A stretch of DNA of 64,000 nucleotides from Octopus vulgaris. Taxonomy: Eukaryota. A model generated the notes under the pieces. It worked only from the letters and a program-made list of their open reading frames with translations. It did not search any database and was not told where the DNA came from. Below are positions 2,407-52,616 of this stretch, one piece after another; positions within the stretch are counted from its first letter, which is position 1; every line of letters begins with the position of its first letter. The position numbers and the translations under genes were made by a program. The stretch covers positions 22,506,001 to 22,570,000 of the forward strand of contig OX597822.1 in the NCBI GenBank assembly GCA_951406725.2, given 5' to 3'.

Positions 2407-2759
2407 GTAAATGCATACATTGTTTAGAGATTGAGATTGTCCCTATGCAAAGCCTTTCCTCACTTTAAAAAGCTTAAGACAGGTGTCACTTGATTTTTAA
2501 CATCATCTCTATTATGTGTTGCATACCATGGCTTGCTGTGGCTGTAAAAGAGAAAAAATCTCTGAACGAGGTATAAACAGTAGCTTCACGACAATGTGAA
2601 GTATATTTGCCACTTAAATGTGGCTAACCACTAAGGGTGGATGCTACTGTAGCTTTTAGTCCAGGAGAACATCTTCTCCAGCAAGCTATTGACACACCTT
2701 CTGTGCTCTATCAGTATTTGCAAAGGGAAGCCATCCTTCCCATCGTCGACTGACACGAT

Positions 2760-2806
2760 ACACACAGACCCGGGTTTCTGGGTATTTACCTGTCGTCAGC
2801 ACACGA
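2760..2806 (-). ncRNA. Minimal type I hammerhead ribozyme motif
   Basis: Minus strand reads cgtgtg-CTGACGA-caggtaaataccca-GAAAC-ccgg-GTC-tgtgtg: full core and a short stem III with a palindromic CCGG loop. Stem I is mostly G-U pairs, consistent with CpG decay. Confidence 0.7.
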
Positions 2807-3075
2807 CAATCACCGGTCTTCGATTAATTCTTTATTACGATTATAAAATCAGTACATAGAGGAACAATACAGGACATACATACAAAAAACAGTTAAGTGG
2901 TTCGTTTAAAAATTTCCACAATATATGGATTATTCATTATACAAAAAACTGTGTTTAAATTGTCCTTTGCATTGACTAATATAACATTACATTAGATTGA
3001 AATCTTACCGATATATTTTAAACCCCGGCAACCTATAAGGCCCCGCAGCTTTCCTTTCCTCTACTCCATCCATAG

Positions 3076-5420
3076 TTAAACTGGGTTTCTGACACCCACC
3101 TTTTTCGCCACTTCCTTCCATCTTTTTTCATACACACCTCGTGGTAAGGTCTTCTTTTCCAGCCCCATTTTGCTCTTCAGATGATATCTGAAGTAAGTGA
3201 GCAATCCGGGGCCTGAGACAAAGGATCCTATTGCGACTCCTTCCATTCTTGTATGCCACATGCATTCTTTTACTACTGCAACCATGCAGTGAAAACATGC
3301 CTCACCTTCCTTCAAGAGTCCAGTTGACGGTATCATCTTAATCATAGACTCAGCCGACAGCTGTACTCGTCCCAGATGCGATAACACGTGTTCTGCATAA
3401 CTTATCAAGTCTGACAACTGCCAACAGTGTACAAAAGCGTGCTGGACTGAAATTCCATGCGTGCCGCGATAACTTCTCATGAACAGGTAAAGCATTCCTA
3501 TAACACTGCCAGGCCAGGGATCTTTGGAAATTATCCAAATACCCCGTCCTGAAAGTCTTTTTAAACAGGTTGGTAAGCTGGTCTTCATCGAACCCCAGAG
3601 CCCCTCCTAGGACGTCGTCGTTCTTTGCCTCTACCAGCCTGCTATAAAATACCGAGGTGGTATTTCCGCAGCCGCAGCCGGCCTTGCCCGCCTTGTGGAT
3701 CAGCGTGAGTGCCTGTCGGCACTCCTTTTGCCATAAAGTCAGATTCCGTCTTTTGATGCAACCGGGTTTAAAATTCACTAAGGAAGCCGGTCTCGGGAAA
3801 AAATTTCCCTGCCAGCGGACTCCACACCTTATCATCCTCCAGGTGGTGCCAGAGATGCTTCAGCCTCAACGCATGCCTGCGCATCATCAACCAAGGCATT
3901 CCTAACCCACCCTTTAATGATTCCTGGCAGCAAACGGAGCGCCTCACAAGTGGCTTTCCTCCCTTCCACAAAAAAGCGGAAAAGGATTCGCTCCAACTTG
4001 CTAAGCCATGAATCGGGGCAAGGGACAGCGGTCAGGCGGTAAGTGATTACAGATGCAATGAACATCTGTACCACCTCCGCCCTTCCTTTCAAGGACAGAA
4101 ACCTTCTGGACCAGGTCCGTACTATGGCCTCCACCTTGTCCGTCACCTCACTCCATTTCCTCTCCGTTTGGGAGTCTGGCCCAAACCAAAATCCTAGCAA
4201 CTTAACAGGACCATCTGTCCAGTGTCCCACGGCACTGGACGATATCGACTTGCTCCTCCAGGTGCCGAGGCATAAGCCAATCGACTTGTCCTTGTTAACT
4301 TTTGCTCCTGCCACCGCTTCGGATCTTCTGATAGCATCTTCTACACAAGATAGCTGAGCCTCATAGGACACGATGAGGGTGACGTCATCCGCATAAGCAG
4401 AAACCGTCCTCCCACCTCCGATCTCATCCGGGTTACTTCCCAGCCTCTCCAACTTTCGCAGCAATGGCTCGAGAGCCAACACGTACAAAAGTGGTGACAA
4501 GGGGCACCCTTGACGAACTGAACATTCAATCGAAAACGGTTCCGTTAGGTAACCGTTTATCTGGACGGTGGACTTGATGCCGCTATACATAGCGGAGATC
4601 CACCCGCGAAATTTAGGGCCCAGTCCAGCCGCTTCGAGGACCGTCGCCAGGTACTTATGGTCTACCCTATCGAACGCTTTACTTTGGTCTAAATGGACCA
4701 TTACCCCACCCTTGCCGGTTAATTTACCCACCCTATCTAAGGTGTAGCGTATAAGGTGAAGATTGTCCTGGATCGACCTGCCTGGAATTGCACATGTCTG
4801 TGCTTTCCCTACAAGTTTCTCCACGACAGTCGTCAACCTTTTTGCCAACACCTTGGCCAAAATCTTTAACTCTACATTAAGTAGAGTTATGGGCCTGTAA
4901 TTACTAATGTTATCCCCCTTGCTCGGGTCTTTCTGGATTAGCGTCACCACTCCCCGGCTTACAGAAGTGGGAATTCTCCCGTTCTGCTGCCAGTTCACGT
5001 AGACGCCTGCCAGTATTCCCCCGAACAAGTCCGGCATACTTTGATAAAACTCGTAGGGCAGACCATCCAACCCCGGCGACTTCTCCCCGGCGCATCCGGC
5101 CAGTACCCCCTCTATCTCCGCGGAAGTGATCGCTCCTTCACAGCACTCCACCTCACGCCCCGAGAGCCGACTAGGAAGTCCTTTAAGGCCCTCTCCAGCG
5201 AAACCACCCCCCCCCCGAACACACGGGCGAAATGCTGGTGAAGAAACTTTTGCATCTCCTCCTGTCCATAGATCTTGTGTCCCTGTTTGTCAGTTAAAGA
5301 CTTGATTGAAGCTTTGTTACCTCTCTGACTCTCCACTCGACGGGCCCATCCGGCAACATTAATACCTTATCGTTTCCCTGTGCGTAGCTTAGCTCTAACT
5401 CTGCAACCTTCGTGTTTGGA
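3076..5420 (-). pseudogene. Tx1-type ORF2 (reverse transcriptase), frameshifted, lacking the APE endonuclease
   Basis: Motifs KSPGLDGLPYEFY, YRPITLLNVELKIL, LDQSKAFDRVDH, VRQGCPLSPLLY, YADD and GGLG; split over ORFs 5112-5336, 3832-5151, 3768-3971, 3350-3835 and 3076-3588. Confidence 0.92.
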
Positions 5421-5421
5421 G

Positions 5422-6195
5422 TTAAGGTGACAGTACAATACCGTCCTTGCCACCATCACTCTTTTCACCACATTTGAAACACCTAGGTCTGCGCCCCTCC
5501 ACTGACACTCTCATTGTAATTCCCTCCTCAATAAATACCCTATCGGGTAAGTTTTCTAGCACATTATTTTCTGCTTGAACGAGGAGTTCAAGCGCTTGTC
5601 CTTTCCAGTTTACCTCCTCTTTCCTTTTGATCTGCAGAATTGAGACTTTCTGCTCTACATCGTGCAGAACCGCCGCTGCTACCCACATTATATCATATCC
5701 TCTTGGTATGTCTTCCACATATATTTTCGCAGTTCTTTTGCCCATATAGGTAGGTAGTAACATGATGTTCTCACTTTTTAAGGTCATCGATGAAATCTCT
5801 CTTGCCACATCAGCTGAGTTGAAATGTGCTTCAACGGTAGCGCTGCAGGCACCTCGACCGACGTAGCGAATTTTGCTCCACACCGGGGACAAGCACTTCT
5901 CTACTATTTCGTTCTTCACGTCCATTATTTTTTTCTCTTTGTTACTGTAAACCTTGTACACGACTGTCTTGGCCTTTATTTCCTGTAATATCGCTTGCGG
6001 CGGTACCAGTTTTATTTCGTTGCCTTCCTTTTTGACCAAGTTCCGGTATTCGAACAACTGTTCTATTTTGAATTCCACTTCCGTTACGGTTCCACCCACT
6101 GCGGCCGAAAAAGACTGTTTTCTAACCTCGATATCCTTCTGTTCGCCTTTTCCCATCACGGGAAAGTCACTCCTCGACACCAAGTCGAACTCCAT
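5422..6195 (-). pseudogene. ORF1 (gag-like), truncated within the zinc knuckle
   Basis: Ends ...VSVEGRRPRCFKCGEK and then jumps to ORF2 linker sequence; aligns by eye with the intact ORF1 at 48903-50093. Confidence 0.85.
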
Positions 6196-7417
6196 TTCTC
6201 AAATTATGAGAACCAATTTTTCAAAAAAAAAAAGTTACCCCGAAGGTAATAACAATGTTTATACACAGAATTTTCAGCCCCGTAGGGCGAAAATTACTGT
6301 CACACAACGGACAACTGTTCAAATTCACGAGCAAACACAAACAAAGACGAACAAAAAACAAACTCACTCAACAAAATAGGCAGCTAACTTCTCAATACGC
6401 AGATGAAAGAGGGGTCCCTAGACGAGTCAAAACACCGGTCTTCGATGCGAAGGGGTCCCAATGCAAATACACATATCCTTTTTCCAGTGATGAAAAGTCA
6501 CTGATCTCGCAAAAGTGTAAACAAGCAATAATAAATCTCTGAACGAGGTATAAACAGTAGCTGCAACACATCGTGAAGTATATTTGCCACTAAATTTGAT
6601 GACAATAACCAAGCAATAGCATTGTTCAAAATCAAGTTGCAGCCATCATCATATCTTAAGACTACATTATTCAATGTTTTTCTTTTCTTTGATTCCTTTT
6701 CTTTGATTCCTTGTATACAATATAACAAACTAAAAAACAAAGAAAAGCAACAATAATTCCTCCTGACTGGTAAAAAGATATAAACTATGAGAGAGACACT
6801 GCTGTGAAATCAGTTGACCTTAGGGGAATGGAAATAGTCAGTATTGAAATTAAAATCCAAACATATTCTAGGATATTTTGTCTGGTTTTCTACTGTCTGC
6901 CACACCCCGTTAAGAATAATAATGATTTGTATATTGACAGAAAATCACATTTAAGGGAGTAATATAATCAATTTATCACCAAGTTTAATATACTTCCTGA
7001 TCCCTAGAAGCCCTTAATCCAGATTAGATTTCCAGTCTCATACTAACTTCTCTCCAGTCAGAGGTTTTGATTAAAGGATCATGAGGGCAGCCTTTCCTCT
7101 TATAATTAAGCCTATCTTCAAGAAAAAATAATATAAATTGACCCCCTCCCCAGTCCTTGACTAATTATTTAACCATCCTTTGAGGGATTTAAGACAAAGC
7201 TGATGACCTTGGTAGGATTTGATCTCAGAATATACATTGTTGTGTAACCAGATACCCAAGACATTTTGCTCTACCATTCCCAGCAACATTAATAGAAACT
7301 GCATCAACAGCAATAGCAATTTAGATCCAAGTTCAGTAATTTGGGAGTAGATTGTAGCTGATTAATCCAACCTTAGCCAGAGGACTGCATCAAGCTCTGT
7401 TAATAATGATGATGATG

Positions 7418-47907: not shown

Positions 47908-48139
47908 AGGCGGAGAACTCGCAGAAACGTTAGCATGCCAGGCGAAATGCTTAGCGGTATTTCGTCTGCCGTTACGTTCTGAGTTCAAATTCCACCGAGG
48001 TCGACTTTGCCTTTCATCCTTTCGAGGTCGATAAATTAAGTACCAGTTAAACACTGGGGTCAATGTAATCAACTTAATCCCTTTGTCTGTCCTTGTTTGT
48101 CCCCTCTATGTTTAGACCCTTGTGGGCAATAGAGAAATA
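47908..48139 (+). mobile_element. tRNA-derived SINE family B (also 29063-29290, 42668-42872, 61846-62078 on +; 32212-32428 on -)
   Basis: AGGCGG...GCAGAAACGTTAG...GAGTTCAAATTCC...GTCGACTTTGCCTTTCATCCTTTCG; 17-bp TSD ATAATGTAATTATAATT at 47888 and 48140. Confidence 0.9.
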
Positions 48140-48331
48140 ATAATGTAATTATAATTAATAATTAATCCAATAAATCCTGTAAACAATTATATTTCTGAAA
48201 ACCAACATTAACAACAAACTAAAACCTTAATCTAAATCCATTTAGATATAAGACACTTAGCATGAATAAAAAAAGACAAAAGGAAACAAACAAGGCGCAG
48301 GAGTGGCTGTGTGGTAAGTAGCTTGCTAACC

Positions 48332-50384
48332 TCTGAACTGTTCGGACATGTTATTTTGCTGCTCCAGATGCCATGTTGTTTCAACATGAATTGTTGAACT
48401 TTCGACTCGACTGCAGGTAGGCATTTTGTGTTTTTGCGAGCAAAGTGAAGTTTTATTACTTGCATTAATGTTTTTTAGCATTAAATATTTTTTTAGCAGA
48501 TAATAAGGCTCCACTTTGCTCCGGATATAATTTTTCTGCCTGTTGTCGAGTGTAAAGAAAATTGTGTTTTTGAGGCGGCGTAGTCCGTCTGCAAAAATTA
48601 TTTTTGAAATTGTCGTTGTGTTATCCACGGGATTTACCAAGGATTATTTTACCAAGGTGTTTTACCAACAGTGTATTTGGCCTGGAATACAATTTTTGGC
48701 CGAAAAAGTGAACAAAAAAAAGAAAAATTAATTCCTTTGTCTGAATTTGAACTCTCTTTCTCCGTCTATCATTCATTTGTTAAAAAAAAGAACTTTTTTT
48801 GAACTGCCATTTTAATTTTATTTCTTCCCTTCTGTTGCTTTTTTCATTCTCCTTTCTGTGTCTAATTTATTTTGTAACATTTTGAACTGTTTTTCTTACG
48901 TTATGGCAAGGAATTTCACTGTGTGGGAATTGACACCTCCCAAAAAGTACTTAAAGGAGCTCGAGGACAGAACCGTGGTGTTGAGGACATATTCGAGGTC
49001 GCTCGATACCATAATGGTTTTCCCGAAAGCCACCATTATGAACGAGCTGGCAGACTATATGCCAGCCGTTAAACATATTCAACGGGGAGCCAAATACGCA
49101 ACGATTTGGTTGCTGTTTGACTCCCCTAAAGCAGCTTGCGATTTCGCGAGTAAGCCCATTGAGGGCGAAGAGATTCTGTTTCTCCCAAGCTATAAGGGGG
49201 AAAAATTGATACGATTATGGGTCTGCGGCCTGCCGCCCGGCTTTGAGCCCGAGTGGGTGGAAGATTCCATCCGCCGGGGTCTGAGTGGTGGTAGCGCCAA
49301 GATCCTGAACGTGAGAATGCAGCCTGCGGCTGACTGGGAAGGGGCAAAGGCTACTTTGACTCTGTGGACCCAGTCGGCCAAGAGTCTGGTTTTGCCGGAC
49401 TTCTTGAAGATGGCTGGGTCCAAGTATCCGGTGATGCTTGAGGGACGCCCCCCCCCCCCCAAGTGTCACCTGTGTTCGGAGACCGGCCACATTAAGAAAA
49501 ACTGCCCCAGGAACCAGAGTAGGATCCTGGAGAAGTTAATATCAGAGCCTATCCCTGCCCCACCAATGGAGGGAGAGAAACAAAGTGAGGAGGGGGAAAA
49601 ATCCTCCTCCAAAAGAAAAAGAAAAGTGGGGAGCAATGGCGACCCACCAAAGGAACCGGAGGCTGCGGAAGAAAAAGAGGACCCGGTGCGTATAGCACTG
49701 GAACCTCAACCTCCCAAGGCCCAGCGTAAAAAGAAAAAGAAAAAGAGGAACGGGACGCCACCAGCGGACTGTAACACCCAGACGGCGTCTCCCATGTGTC
49801 CTCCAGCGGTTGTGATGCCGGAGAAATTTTATGTAGTCCTCTTCCATAAAGGAGGCACTGTAGAAAACGAAATAGGTAAGATGAGGAAGAGAAACCAATG
49901 GGAGGGACTTCGGCCTGCATGGAGTATCCCGTGGCCTTCGCAGCTGGCTGCGGAGGTCCTACTCGAAAATGATATGTGCAGGATCGAGAATTCTTTCCCG
50001 GAGGATCTCTTGCAAGTCATACCTGTATGCGGAAGCCTGACGATGGACGATTGCGTCATTAAAGCAAGAGAGTTCATCAGTCGGGTAACGTAAAATTGTA
50101 ATTGTGTTACATTGTGACAGAGGTTTATTGCCTCTGAAGAGACTTTTAAAAGTGTAAATTGTAAATTGAAATTTTTGTGAAAATTTTTTGAATTTTTGTA
50201 ATTTTTGAAATTTTGTAAATTATTGAAAAAAAAAGAAGAACATTGTTTTAGAGAAGCAAAAGTCGGCGGGCGCTTTCTGACTTCTCCCATCACCATCTTC
50301 ATCAACCACCACCATCATCCATTAATGTCCTTGTCCAGCCCGTAGCTACTCTGTGTGCTGCCCTAGTGGCAAATTATTAAAATA
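48332..50384 (+). mobile_element. ORF1-only non-autonomous retroelement (HAL1-like 'half-LINE')
   Basis: 16-bp TSD AAGTAGCTTGCTAACC at 48316-48331 and 50385-50400; ~570-bp 5' UTR, single ORF, ~290-bp 3' UTR ending ATTAAAATA; no RT or endonuclease. Confidence 0.85.
48903..50093 (+). CDS. Gag-like ORF1 protein with CCHC zinc knuckle (396 aa from first ATG)
   Basis: Uninterrupted ORF; CHLCSETGHIKKNC knuckle; basic tracts KRKRK and RKKKKKKR; collinear motifs shared with the Tx1 ORF1 at 5422-6195. Confidence 0.85.
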   Translation: MARNFTVWELTPPKKYLKELEDRTVVLRTYSRSLDTIMVFPKATIMNELADYMPAVKHIQRGAKYATIWLLFDSPKAACDFASKPIEGEEILFLPSYKGEKLIRLWVCGLPPGFEPEWVEDSIRRGLSGGSAKILNVRMQPAADWEGAKATLTLWTQSAKSLVLPDFLKMAGSKYPVMLEGRPPPPKCHLCSETGHIKKNCPRNQSRILEKLISEPIPAPPMEGEKQSEEGEKSSSKRKRKVGSNGDPPKEPEAAEEKEDPVRIALEPQPPKAQRKKKKKKRNGTPPADCNTQTASPMCPPAVVMPEKFYVVLFHKGGTVENEIGKMRKRNQWEGLRPAWSIPWPSQLAAEVLLENDMCRIENSFPEDLLQVIPVCGSLTMDDCVIKAREFISRVT

Positions 50385-50533
50385 AAGTAGCTTGCTAACC
50401 AACCACATGGTTCTGGGTTCAGTCCCACTGCGTGGCATCTTGGGCAAGTGTCTTCTGCTATAGCCCCGGGCCAACCAATGCCTTGTGAGTGGATTTGGTA
50501 GACGGAAACTGAAAGAAGCCTGTTGTATATATG

Positions 50534-50566
<33 letters not shown>

Positions 50567-52616
50567 TTGTGTTTGTCCCCCTAGCATTGCTTGACAACCA
50601 ATGCTGGTGTGTTTACATCCCCGTCACTTAGCGGTTCAGCAAAAGAGACCGATAGAATAAGTACTGGGCTTACAAAGAATAAGTCCCGGGGTCGATTTGC
50701 TCGACTAAAGGCGGTGCTCCAGCATGGCCGCAGTCAAATAACTGAAACAAGTAAAAGAGAAAAGAGTAAAAGAGTAAACTAGACAGTATTGTATAGCATG
50801 TAATCAAAACCCATAATGTAAAGCAGCCTACACACCACAACCATCTATTTACAACATGGTCATCCTTCAAAAATATAACATCACACAGCATGTACTCTAT
50901 ACAGTTAATACCTAATAATATAAACCCACACTAAAAACACCATTCGAGCATGATCGTCACCTGCATCACCTTACTAGCACTTGTGCTGGTGGCATGTGAA
51001 AAAACATTTGAGCGAGGTTGTTGCCAGTGCCGCTAGACTGGCTGCTGTGCAGGTGGCACATAAAAAAGCACCATTTGAGCGTGACCATTGCCAGTACCTC
51101 CTGACTGGCCTTCATGCCGGTGGCACGTAAAAGCACCCACTACACTCTCAGGGCAGTTGGCGTTACGAAGGGCATCCAGCTGTAGAAACTCTGCCAGACC
51201 AAGATTGAAGCCTGGTGCAGCCATCTGGTTTGCCAGACCTCAGTCAAATCGTCCAACCCATACTAGCATGGAAAGCGGACGTTAAACAATGATGATGATG
51301 ACTAACAATATTTTGTGTAATCACCAAATACAATAAGCCCAATTGTGATGAAATTTGGTTAATGGAAACTGAAAGAAAACCATCATATGCATGTGAATGT
51401 GCATATGTGCTTCTTTATATTTTCTCTCAGCTGAAATCACTCACTAAGAAATCATTGCTTTTTTTGTGTTTTTGAAACTACGTGAGAGATTCTTTAATTG
51501 TGAAACAAGTAAGGGCACACAACAAGAAGAGCATAAAACCTTAAAACGATGCTTTGATAACATGTCTACAGAAAAACAGACATAAAACACAATCACATTA
51601 CACATATTCTACATAATCTACACAACCGACAGATAAAAGACTAAAATAACAGTAGAAATAGTATAACAAATGCCAAAACAATGCAAAACTGATGTAACAT
51701 ACAGACATTACTGTAACAACAAGGTGTCTCTAGTTGAGCAATGCACTAGCATGAAACATCGTTACGTCATTATCAGCATAAGGTCTACTTTCCATTCTTG
51801 CATGGGTCAGACAAAATTCATTGAGGCTGATTGTTCTATTGACAGACTACTCTTTCTGTTACCAGCACTCATCTGTTTCCAAGTATGGTAATATTCTTCC
51901 ATAGTCATAGGAGTGGCTGTGTGGTAAGTAGCTTGCTTACCAATCACATGGTTCCGGGTTCAGTCCCACTGCGTGGCACCTTGGGCAAGTGTCTTCTACT
52001 ATAGCCTCGGACTTACCAAAGCCTTGTGAGTGGATTTGGTAGACGGAAACTGAAAGAAGCCCATCGTATATATGTATGTATATATGTGTGTGTGTGTGTG
52101 TGTGTGTATGTTTGTGCGTCTGTGTTTGTTCCCCCCCAACATCGCTTGACAACTGATGCTGGTGTGTTGACATCCCTGCAACTTAGTGGTTCGGCAAAAG
52201 ACACCGATAGAATAAGTACTAGGCTTACAAAGAATAAGTCCTGGGGTCGATTTGCTCGAACTAAAGGCGGTGCTCCAGCATGGCCACAGTCAGGTGCCTG
52301 GAACAAGTAAAAGAGTAAAAGAGAGAGTCTTTTAAACAAACCTCACAATGACCAAAAATGGAAGACAGCAAATGAATGAGTGTCTGACAGTGAGGCTCAC
52401 TTGCATTTAACATGTGATAAGGAGACAGAAACACACAAATGCACATAAGAAGCTTCTTTCAGTTTCCATCAATCAAATTCACTTAAAGATATTTGGTTGA
52501 CCTGGGGTTTATAATTGAAGATATTTGTCCAAAGTGCTGTACAGTGAGATTGAACCCCAAACCACATGCTTGCAAAGTAAACTTCTAAAACATACAACCA
52601 TGCCCAGATCCATTAA

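Follow-up and report, generated by a model that had tools for sequence, protein, structure and literature searches.

An ORF1-only non-LTR element family of Octopus vulgaris at a fixed site in a SINE head, and its candidate LINE partners

We analyzed a 64,000-nt stretch of the Octopus vulgaris genome (contig OX597822.1, positions 22,506,001 to 22,570,000; hereafter the window), in which positions 48332-50384 form a 2053-bp unit bounded by two exact copies of AAGTAGCTTGCTAACC (16/16 nucleotides matching, at 48316-48331 and 50385-50400), as a sequence-only reading of this DNA had reported. The unit carries one open reading frame (ORF) that resembles the ORF1 of LINEs (long interspersed nuclear elements), and it lacks their ORF2 with its reverse transcriptase (RT). 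Very probably it is a copy of a multi-copy, ORF1-only family of non-LTR elements (those without long terminal repeats) whose site, a fixed stretch of 16 nt, belongs to the head of a short interspersed nuclear element (SINE), and that is likely moved in trans by LINEs inserting at the same site. Direct support comes from the family itself, its common ends and site, the same-site LINEs with their collinear tails, the selection on the ORF and the predicted RRM-RRM-knuckle fold of its protein.

The element and the SINE that it interrupts

All features of the locus lie on the forward strand. The 5' part of the targeted SINE head (48294-48331), a sequence that also precedes the element at other loci, contains an A-box-like motif, TGGCTGTGTGG, at 48304-48314 and ends in the left 16-nt target copy. 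The element opens with a 571-nt 5' untranslated region (UTR; 48332-48902), continues with a single ATG-to-stop ORF of 396 aa plus stop (48903-50093, from an ORF scan) and closes with a 291-nt 3' UTR (50094-50384) that shows no coding similarity to ORF2 and includes ATTAAA at 50376-50381, which bears out the earlier description of a long 5' UTR and a short 3' UTR with this signal. Comparison of motif and target picks out a tail motif, GTAGCTACT (50342-50350), complementary to the target's AGTAGCT. It is followed by a conserved 3' terminal block, CTGCCCTAGTGGCAAAT...AAATA (50358-50384), that is common to autonomous LINE tails and SINE tails. The block abuts the right 16-nt target copy, and an AATAAA spans the junction (50381-50386). 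The rest of the interrupted SINE (50401-50760) comprises a B-box-like motif, GGTTCAGTCCC, at 50416-50426, a (TA/TG)n stretch and the SINE body, as delimited against an uninterrupted copy at 51910-52290.

In the 5' UTR, a 200-nt monomer that is tandem in other copies of the element is present once (about 48367-48568). This monomer (element nt 36-237) is repeated upstream in copies L016-L018, L021-L024 and L026, with up to three units, and Tandem Repeats Finder (TRF) gives a period of 200 and 3.0 copies in L023; we infer that it has a promoter role. The ORF had been described as retaining its CpG dinucleotides, and its observed/expected ratio is indeed 0.72, against 0.34 for the whole window. 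The element also holds up as free of an RT remnant: a Pfam search with the protein gave only a sub-threshold zf-CCHC match, tblastx of window positions 49501-50384 against two autonomous LINEs gave no match below E 0.1, and blastn gave nothing significant.

The flanks of the element are the two halves of a SINE head, and the joined site occurs uninterrupted three more times in the window (0 expected). Genome-wide, the uninterrupted 31-mer has 28,847 exact copies and the 26-mer 31,606. The target is thus a short and very abundant dispersed repeat, which looks like the common octopus SINE. Its head is not recognizable as a tRNA: the tRNA origin proposed from sequence alone was not confirmed, as neither Rfam (at gathering or E <= 10 thresholds) nor ARAGORN found a tRNA there. 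The accompanying proposal, that the insertion separates A and B boxes, survives in part, since box-like motifs lie on either side of the element but were judged by eye against consensus sequences. The predicted effect of insertion, a disabled SINE promoter, would be marginal for the SINE overall, because 28,847 perfect empty sites remain.

The ORF of the window copy is open, as described, but not pristine. A 13-C run (49448-49460) is expanded relative to the family and adds two prolines, and losses of 1 nt at 49913 and 2 nt at 49930, 17 nt apart, set the copy off from others; together they make a compensated frameshift, which puts the conserved C-terminal domain into the wrong frame for about six codons. 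The nearest relatives of the window copy are 97.5-97.6% identical to it. Among the sequencing runs listed as containing the element, none is recorded as RNA. Contigs from four runs (X1, X2, X3 and X5) cover the element at low depth and cannot be told apart from DNA. In X2, one 726-nt contig passes from 48994 to 49161 without the 166 nt of the ORF between them (48995-49160), as would fit either a spliced form or a copy with an internal deletion.

Copies, target site and tail motif

The assembly searched spans 2.8 Gb, and the window lies on its contig 9. From a DNA search with the element we took the best 80 matches of 2490 first-look candidates and kept 30 loci, 26 of which reach the element's 3' end. 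The copies are ~2.0 kb long and 84-100% identical, with listed matches down to 79%. Dozens of them share an identical ORF-to-3' UTR junction, and ORF2 is absent after this junction in all 26 loci that reach the 3' end. The sequence-only reading had made its proposal of a family depend on this outcome, and its proposal of targeting on the insertion flanks, which proved to be non-random.

Among those 26 loci, 25 have AAGTAGC after the element. Tail matches were then collected over all loci; there were 51, one of them in another kind of repeat, and 49 of the 50 remaining family tails have AAG(T/A)AGC within ~11 nt, in the SINE head (the exception is L021). A 17-mer from the tail, CTGCCCTWGTGGCAAAT, has 335 exact copies in the genome (0 for the reversed control), and 204 of the 335 show the strict junction pattern, with AAG(T/A)AGC within 8-13 nt. 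We sampled 21 of the non-fitting tails, at 20 loci. Eight belong to the element's own family, seven of these at a mutated or longer-spaced target and one (L089) at another flank; the rest are seven tails of a different SINE, four others followed by trinucleotide repeats and two of another family. The 17-mer also ends other SINE-like repeats (L079, L082, L084, L087, L094, L095 and L098, and L083, L085, L086 and L090), and microsatellites with a trinucleotide unit, for example (ATT)n, (ATC)n, (GTT)n or (AGT)n, often flank these. These flanks may reflect a second, microsatellite-directed use of the tail, or growth of the repeats from the tail.

The two target copies had been read as a 16-bp target-site duplication. 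The repeat is exact, but it is not a plain duplication, since the left copy is likely to travel, at least in part, with the element's RNA. An extra-T form, AAGTAGCTTTGCTAACC, makes up 5 of 21 left copies and is found on the right side only where another element follows. Exact counts across the genome give three extra-T and eight normal forms before the element's 5' end, compared with seven extra-T and 31,606 normal forms before the SINE body; the near-absence of the extra-T form from SINE heads is what suggests that the element RNA carries it. At the other end, the AATAAA that straddles the junction would make the RNA terminate within the target copy that follows.

The tail motif changes together with the target. 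At AAGTAGC targets, 45 of 46 copies carry an AGCTAC-type motif (38 of them exactly), and at AAGAAGC targets, which lie in a variant SINE head, 23 of 23 carry an AGCTTC-type motif (19 exactly), so that motif and target types agree in 68 of 69 copies. Autonomous LINE tails have the site-complementary TTAAGCTACT(T/A)CAC in 28 of 28 cases. Such matching differences are what one would see if the element RNA partly read the target, with the 3' UTR motif pairing with target DNA or with a co-transcribed copy of it and thereby guiding or proof-reading insertion, the endonuclease not being the sole determinant. Two further results lean the same way: two changes of target label are required on a tree built from the N-terminal part of the protein, because L122 groups with an AAGTAGC family (98/71 support), and the motif pairs with the co-transcribed target in the minimum-energy fold of three of four constructs. 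However, well-supported branches force only one target change, and L122 is a long branch, so a single event or an exchange of the whole tail may suffice. The fold energies of tail plus read-through, moreover, are no better than those of shuffled sequences (z -0.14 to -1.0), one copy (L118) departs from the rule, and the motif core is partly palindromic, which makes the sense of the pairing ambiguous. Site choice by target-specific APE-type LINEs is also generally attributed to the endonuclease. Taken together, we consider a reading role for the RNA possible but rather unlikely. Were it true, an enzyme-less lineage would keep its own address label, and target choice would travel in the RNA tail, where a few base changes could re-aim it.

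Flanks common to all copies could also arise with no targeting at all, if a composite of SINE head, insert and SINE body had been amplified whole, by SINE retroposition or by duplication. Arrays of 2.0-kb ORF1-only units do stand head to tail at one site: seven units at G000:C1:223692500-223709500 (L119 and L120), 98.8-99.9% identical to one another and then adjoined by an autonomous LINE, and six units at G000:C5:78746214-78756166. Either serial insertion or unequal crossing-over could have built them, and growth of the seven-unit array by the latter route would suit a composite. Against amplification as a whole, SINE-flank identity (mean 0.90) is independent of element identity (0.74-0.98; r = 0.14 over 105 locus pairs), which indicates that the shared flanks were not inherited with the insert and that the insertions are independent. 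Beyond the SINE, sequence differs locus by locus; the site is shared by autonomous LINEs and by different families, which stand there singly or in stacks, with different families found head to tail at a single site; and one subfamily lies at the homologous site of the variant SINE head. We regard amplification of a composite as very improbable. Beside these coding copies, the elements L123-L127 end in this tail at an AAGAAGC target, yet nothing similar to ORF1 or RT lies in the 2.3 kb upstream; they may be non-coding passengers.

The ORF1-only lineage and its protein

The protein begins with two RRM-like domains (about aa 12-100 and 101-181; 48936-49445) that are homologous to the ORF1 of autonomous LINEs. 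A CCHC zinc knuckle (aa 187-202; 49461-49508) follows just after the 13-C run, and after a basic, low-complexity linker the protein ends in an alpha/beta domain of ~90 residues (aa 305-396; 49815-50090), recognized from AlphaFold2 (AF2) models and from matches within the octopus genome itself. A divergent likeness to an ORF1 elsewhere in the window (described at 5422-6195; the frame is 5422-6198 on the reverse strand) had been noticed from the letters alone, and BLASTP supports it with 28% identity over 187 aa (E 2e-22); by hhalign, aa 13-207 align with aa 57-249 of a LINE ORF1 at a probability of 98.7. The LINE that carries the ORF1 of the window (2555-6590, reverse strand) has its ORF1 at 6198-5422 and its RT at 5289-3832, with no room between them for an endonuclease, and is flanked by direct repeats of ~55-60 nt (about 6590-6530 and 2617-2557), far above the usual size of a target duplication.

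An AF2 model of the N-terminal 215 residues, built from 31 sequences, has a pLDDT of 83.6. Foldseek matches it to tandem-RRM proteins at E ~1e-4 (86 matches at E <= 0.001), and VIA-align pairs residues 12-100 with the La RRM (Z 9.0, root mean square deviation [rmsd] 2.8, 82 residues aligned) and residues 103-181 with the Pub1 RRM (Z 8.0, rmsd 2.3, 72 aligned). We thus confidently predict a tandem RRM-like fold for this part of the protein. The knuckle falls slightly below the Pfam cutoff for zf-CCHC (E 0.0011, 19.4 bits against 20.8); of the 15 family proteins in the alignment, 13 conserve it. In the full-length AF2 model (15 sequences), mean pLDDT is 40.9, and values of ~66-79 are reached only in the C-terminal domain, whose best structural match (Z 4.9) is a generic ferredoxin-like alpha/beta fold. 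Relatives of this domain were absent from Pfam, the ESM Atlas held no usable match, and the 38 matches from a library of 1.84 billion representatives included none over aa 300-396. By these searches, the domain appears to be specific to this group of elements.

We also searched the genome with the C-terminal 99 residues and scored the best 150 of 833 candidates; these match at 43-100% identity, and among these 150 the open frame across the C-terminal domain is at most ~500 aa. Distant copies have frames of 392-397 aa in an unchanged layout. A separate 2.0-kb family, that of the seven-unit array, has the same ORF1-only build; its protein, of 415 aa, shows 43% identity over residues 8-393. Because the build is kept down to this level of identity, the ORF1-only lineage is, judged by its predicted proteins, old and diversified. 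The family had been called young, which is not the whole story for the lineage; the window copy is 97.5% identical to its nearest relatives.

Frames of at least 380 aa are present at 10 of the 30 family loci and are broken at the other 20. Nonsynonymous-to-synonymous rate ratios (dN/dS, by the Nei-Gojobori method), calculated on these 10 open copies, are 0.27-0.40 between subfamilies; regional values over seven pairs are 0.10-0.23 for the RRM part, 0.24-0.52 for the linker and 0.36-1.03 for the C-terminal domain. The dN/dS check that had been proposed thus came out at ~0.3 overall, and these ratios show the predicted ORF to be under purifying selection. In L027 (and L029), the C-terminal third and the 3' part are far more diverged than the N-terminal part, with a dS in L027 of ~1.0 in the C-terminal region versus ~0.3 in the N-terminal region. 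This unevenness suggests mosaic copies, formed by template switching or by recombination between families.

Purifying selection would likewise be seen in a domesticated, gag-like host gene family whose ORF was kept for host use rather than for movement, and the single match in a protein search with the 396-aa ORF, LOC115225585 of Octopus sinensis, is annotated as a gene. That annotation is automatic, however, and the frame is found in decaying copies by the hundred, which are dispersed, site-specific and alike in their ends; with two thirds of the sampled frames broken (20/30) and no single conserved locus, host use has very little to recommend it.

Same-site LINEs and comparison with known systems

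An autonomous LINE sharing the element's 3' end had been named as something to look for, and such LINEs are present: full-length LINEs, inserted at the same 16-mer, stand downstream of three element copies. One of these has an open ORF2 of 1140 aa with matches to Exo_endo_phos (1.4e-11), RVT_1 (9.1e-29) and zf-RVT (1.1e-8), that is, an endonuclease of the APE type, an RT and, at the C-terminus, a zinc finger. Searching with the last 200 residues of this ORF2, we listed the best 150 of 24,806 first-look candidates and kept 30 ORF2-bearing loci; several frames among the matches listed are open at 1133-1150 aa. (A)AGTAGCTT follows in 28 of 28 readable LINE tails. The last ~70 nt are collinear among the ORF1-only element, both LINE types and a SINE tail in the window, with 23 of 79 alignment columns invariant, and between the ORF1-only tail and that of one LINE type there are two differences in the last 20 nt. 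Outside this terminal ~70 nt, we detected no similarity between the element and the LINEs in the 3' UTR, nor any in the 5' UTR. Homologues of the partner RT include proteins of Argonauta hians (60% identity) and Takifugu (Q76B34, 28%), the latter presumably from a Tx1-type element. From its domain build and fixed site, we describe the partner as Tx1-like. At window 48070-48139, a SINE-like tail is collinear with the autonomous LINE tails and is not followed by AAGTAGC; LINE-type tails thus serve elements with other landing places as well.

LINE copies with internal deletions are frequent, the window LINE without an endonuclease part being one, but there is next to no chance that the element is a one-off of this kind, a full-length LINE copy that lost ORF2 here by deletion or premature polyadenylation, given that dozens of copies have the identical junction and ends, that the build persists in families at 43-62% protein identity, that ORF1 is only 25-29% identical to the ORF1 of same-site LINEs with no trace of ORF2 by tblastx, and that the independence of flank and element identity argues against segmental duplication of one locus.

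The reading that accounts for these results is an ORF1-only family moved in trans, which we infer from the use of the same site by 28 of 28 LINE tails and from the collinear 3' tail. The element's own 5' UTR, with its 200-nt monomers, would drive transcription from a start that probably lies in the left target copy or ahead of it, and the AATAAA at the junction would set the RNA end within the downstream target copy. The element RNA would then be coated by its own ORF1 protein, while the partner ORF2 protein, recognizing the 3' terminal block that both have in common, would cut the bottom strand immediately 5' of AAGTAGC and use the nick to prime reverse transcription. Closure of the 5' junction through the 16-nt homology would rebuild the site, so that further elements could stack behind.

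Several points weigh against this scheme. The low identity between the element's ORF1 and that of its putative partners means that pairing with a given partner rests on tail and site, and not on recent common descent. At the variant AAGAAGC site, we found no autonomous LINE (0 of 28 tails, and two downstream stretches without RT). Estimates of selection are biased somewhat downwards by the choice of open copies. For the C-terminal domain, two pairs reach 0.72-1.03. The window copy, with its frame open but slightly damaged, is probably not a source copy, and the sequencing runs that contain the element are only guessed to be RNA. Transposition, transcript ends and protein are all predictions from sequence.

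That the lineage is old, diversified and selected argues that even a parasite's parasite gains from keeping an ORF1 protein to act on the RNA that encodes it, and a retroelement with tens of thousands of perfect copies offers it a safe harbour as a target. The many natural replicate insertions also provide material for studying how target-primed reverse transcription finds and rebuilds its site, how 3' tails are recognized and whether an RNA motif has a part in reading the target.

A survey of repeats in Octopus vulgaris lists active L1-Tx1 families, and a term search of its main text returned no mention of ORF1, site-specific or non-autonomous elements (PMC13282606). Our full-text literature search likewise returned no description of an ORF1-only site-specific element, or of a SINE-head target in cephalopods. 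Target-specific Tx1 LINEs are described as picking one sequence, often another repeat: Tx1L inserts in Tx1D, Keno in U2 genes, and Kibi and Koshi in microsatellites, while crocodilian Tx1-Mar is found with SINEU in Mariner-N4_AMi, and non-autonomous elements at the same target are taken to be passengers (Kojima 2015, PMC4494074). The octopus LINEs and their putative ORF1-only passenger share this use of one defined repeat sequence. Whereas Tx1 passengers are non-coding SINEs, the octopus passenger keeps a selected protein gene, and its target is a SINE head at which the site is rebuilt so that elements stack. Insertion of R1/R2-type elements is believed to gain precision from target sequence co-transcribed at the ends of their RNA (PMC4494074). 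The extra-T left copy and the junction AATAAA suggest, from DNA, that target sequence is present at both ends of the octopus RNA as well, although R1 and R2 are autonomous and target rRNA genes.

HeT-A, which shares the telomeres of Drosophila with TART, also lacks an RT. Like the octopus element, it is Gag-only, relies on the RT of another element and accumulates in head-to-tail arrays at sites of a defined type; it differs in occupying chromosome ends, where it serves the host, whereas the octopus sites are internal and dispersed, with no host role seen. The closest parallel in build is HAL1, the half-L1 of mammals and the textbook case of an ORF1-only element: this non-autonomous derivative of a LINE has ORF1p as its sole product, occurs as families, is presumed to rely on ORF2p supplied in trans and is reported to have arisen several times (PMC5753468). 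The octopus family likewise encodes a LINE ORF1 homologue without ORF2 or RT. HAL1, however, is derived from L1 and has no fixed site, whereas the octopus element sits at one fixed nucleotide position of a SINE, has an ORF1 of the RRM-RRM-CCHC type with an added C-terminal domain, and is paired with a Tx1-like, target-specific LINE. We found no L1 derivation of the kind that defines HAL1 proper: neither the same-site partners, at 25-29% ORF1 identity, nor the carriers of the nearest ORF1s are recent parents. The octopus element is therefore an analogue of HAL1 and not a member of that group, and it combines two habits known separately, the reduction of a LINE to a gene for an RNA-binding protein and strictly sequence-specific insertion.

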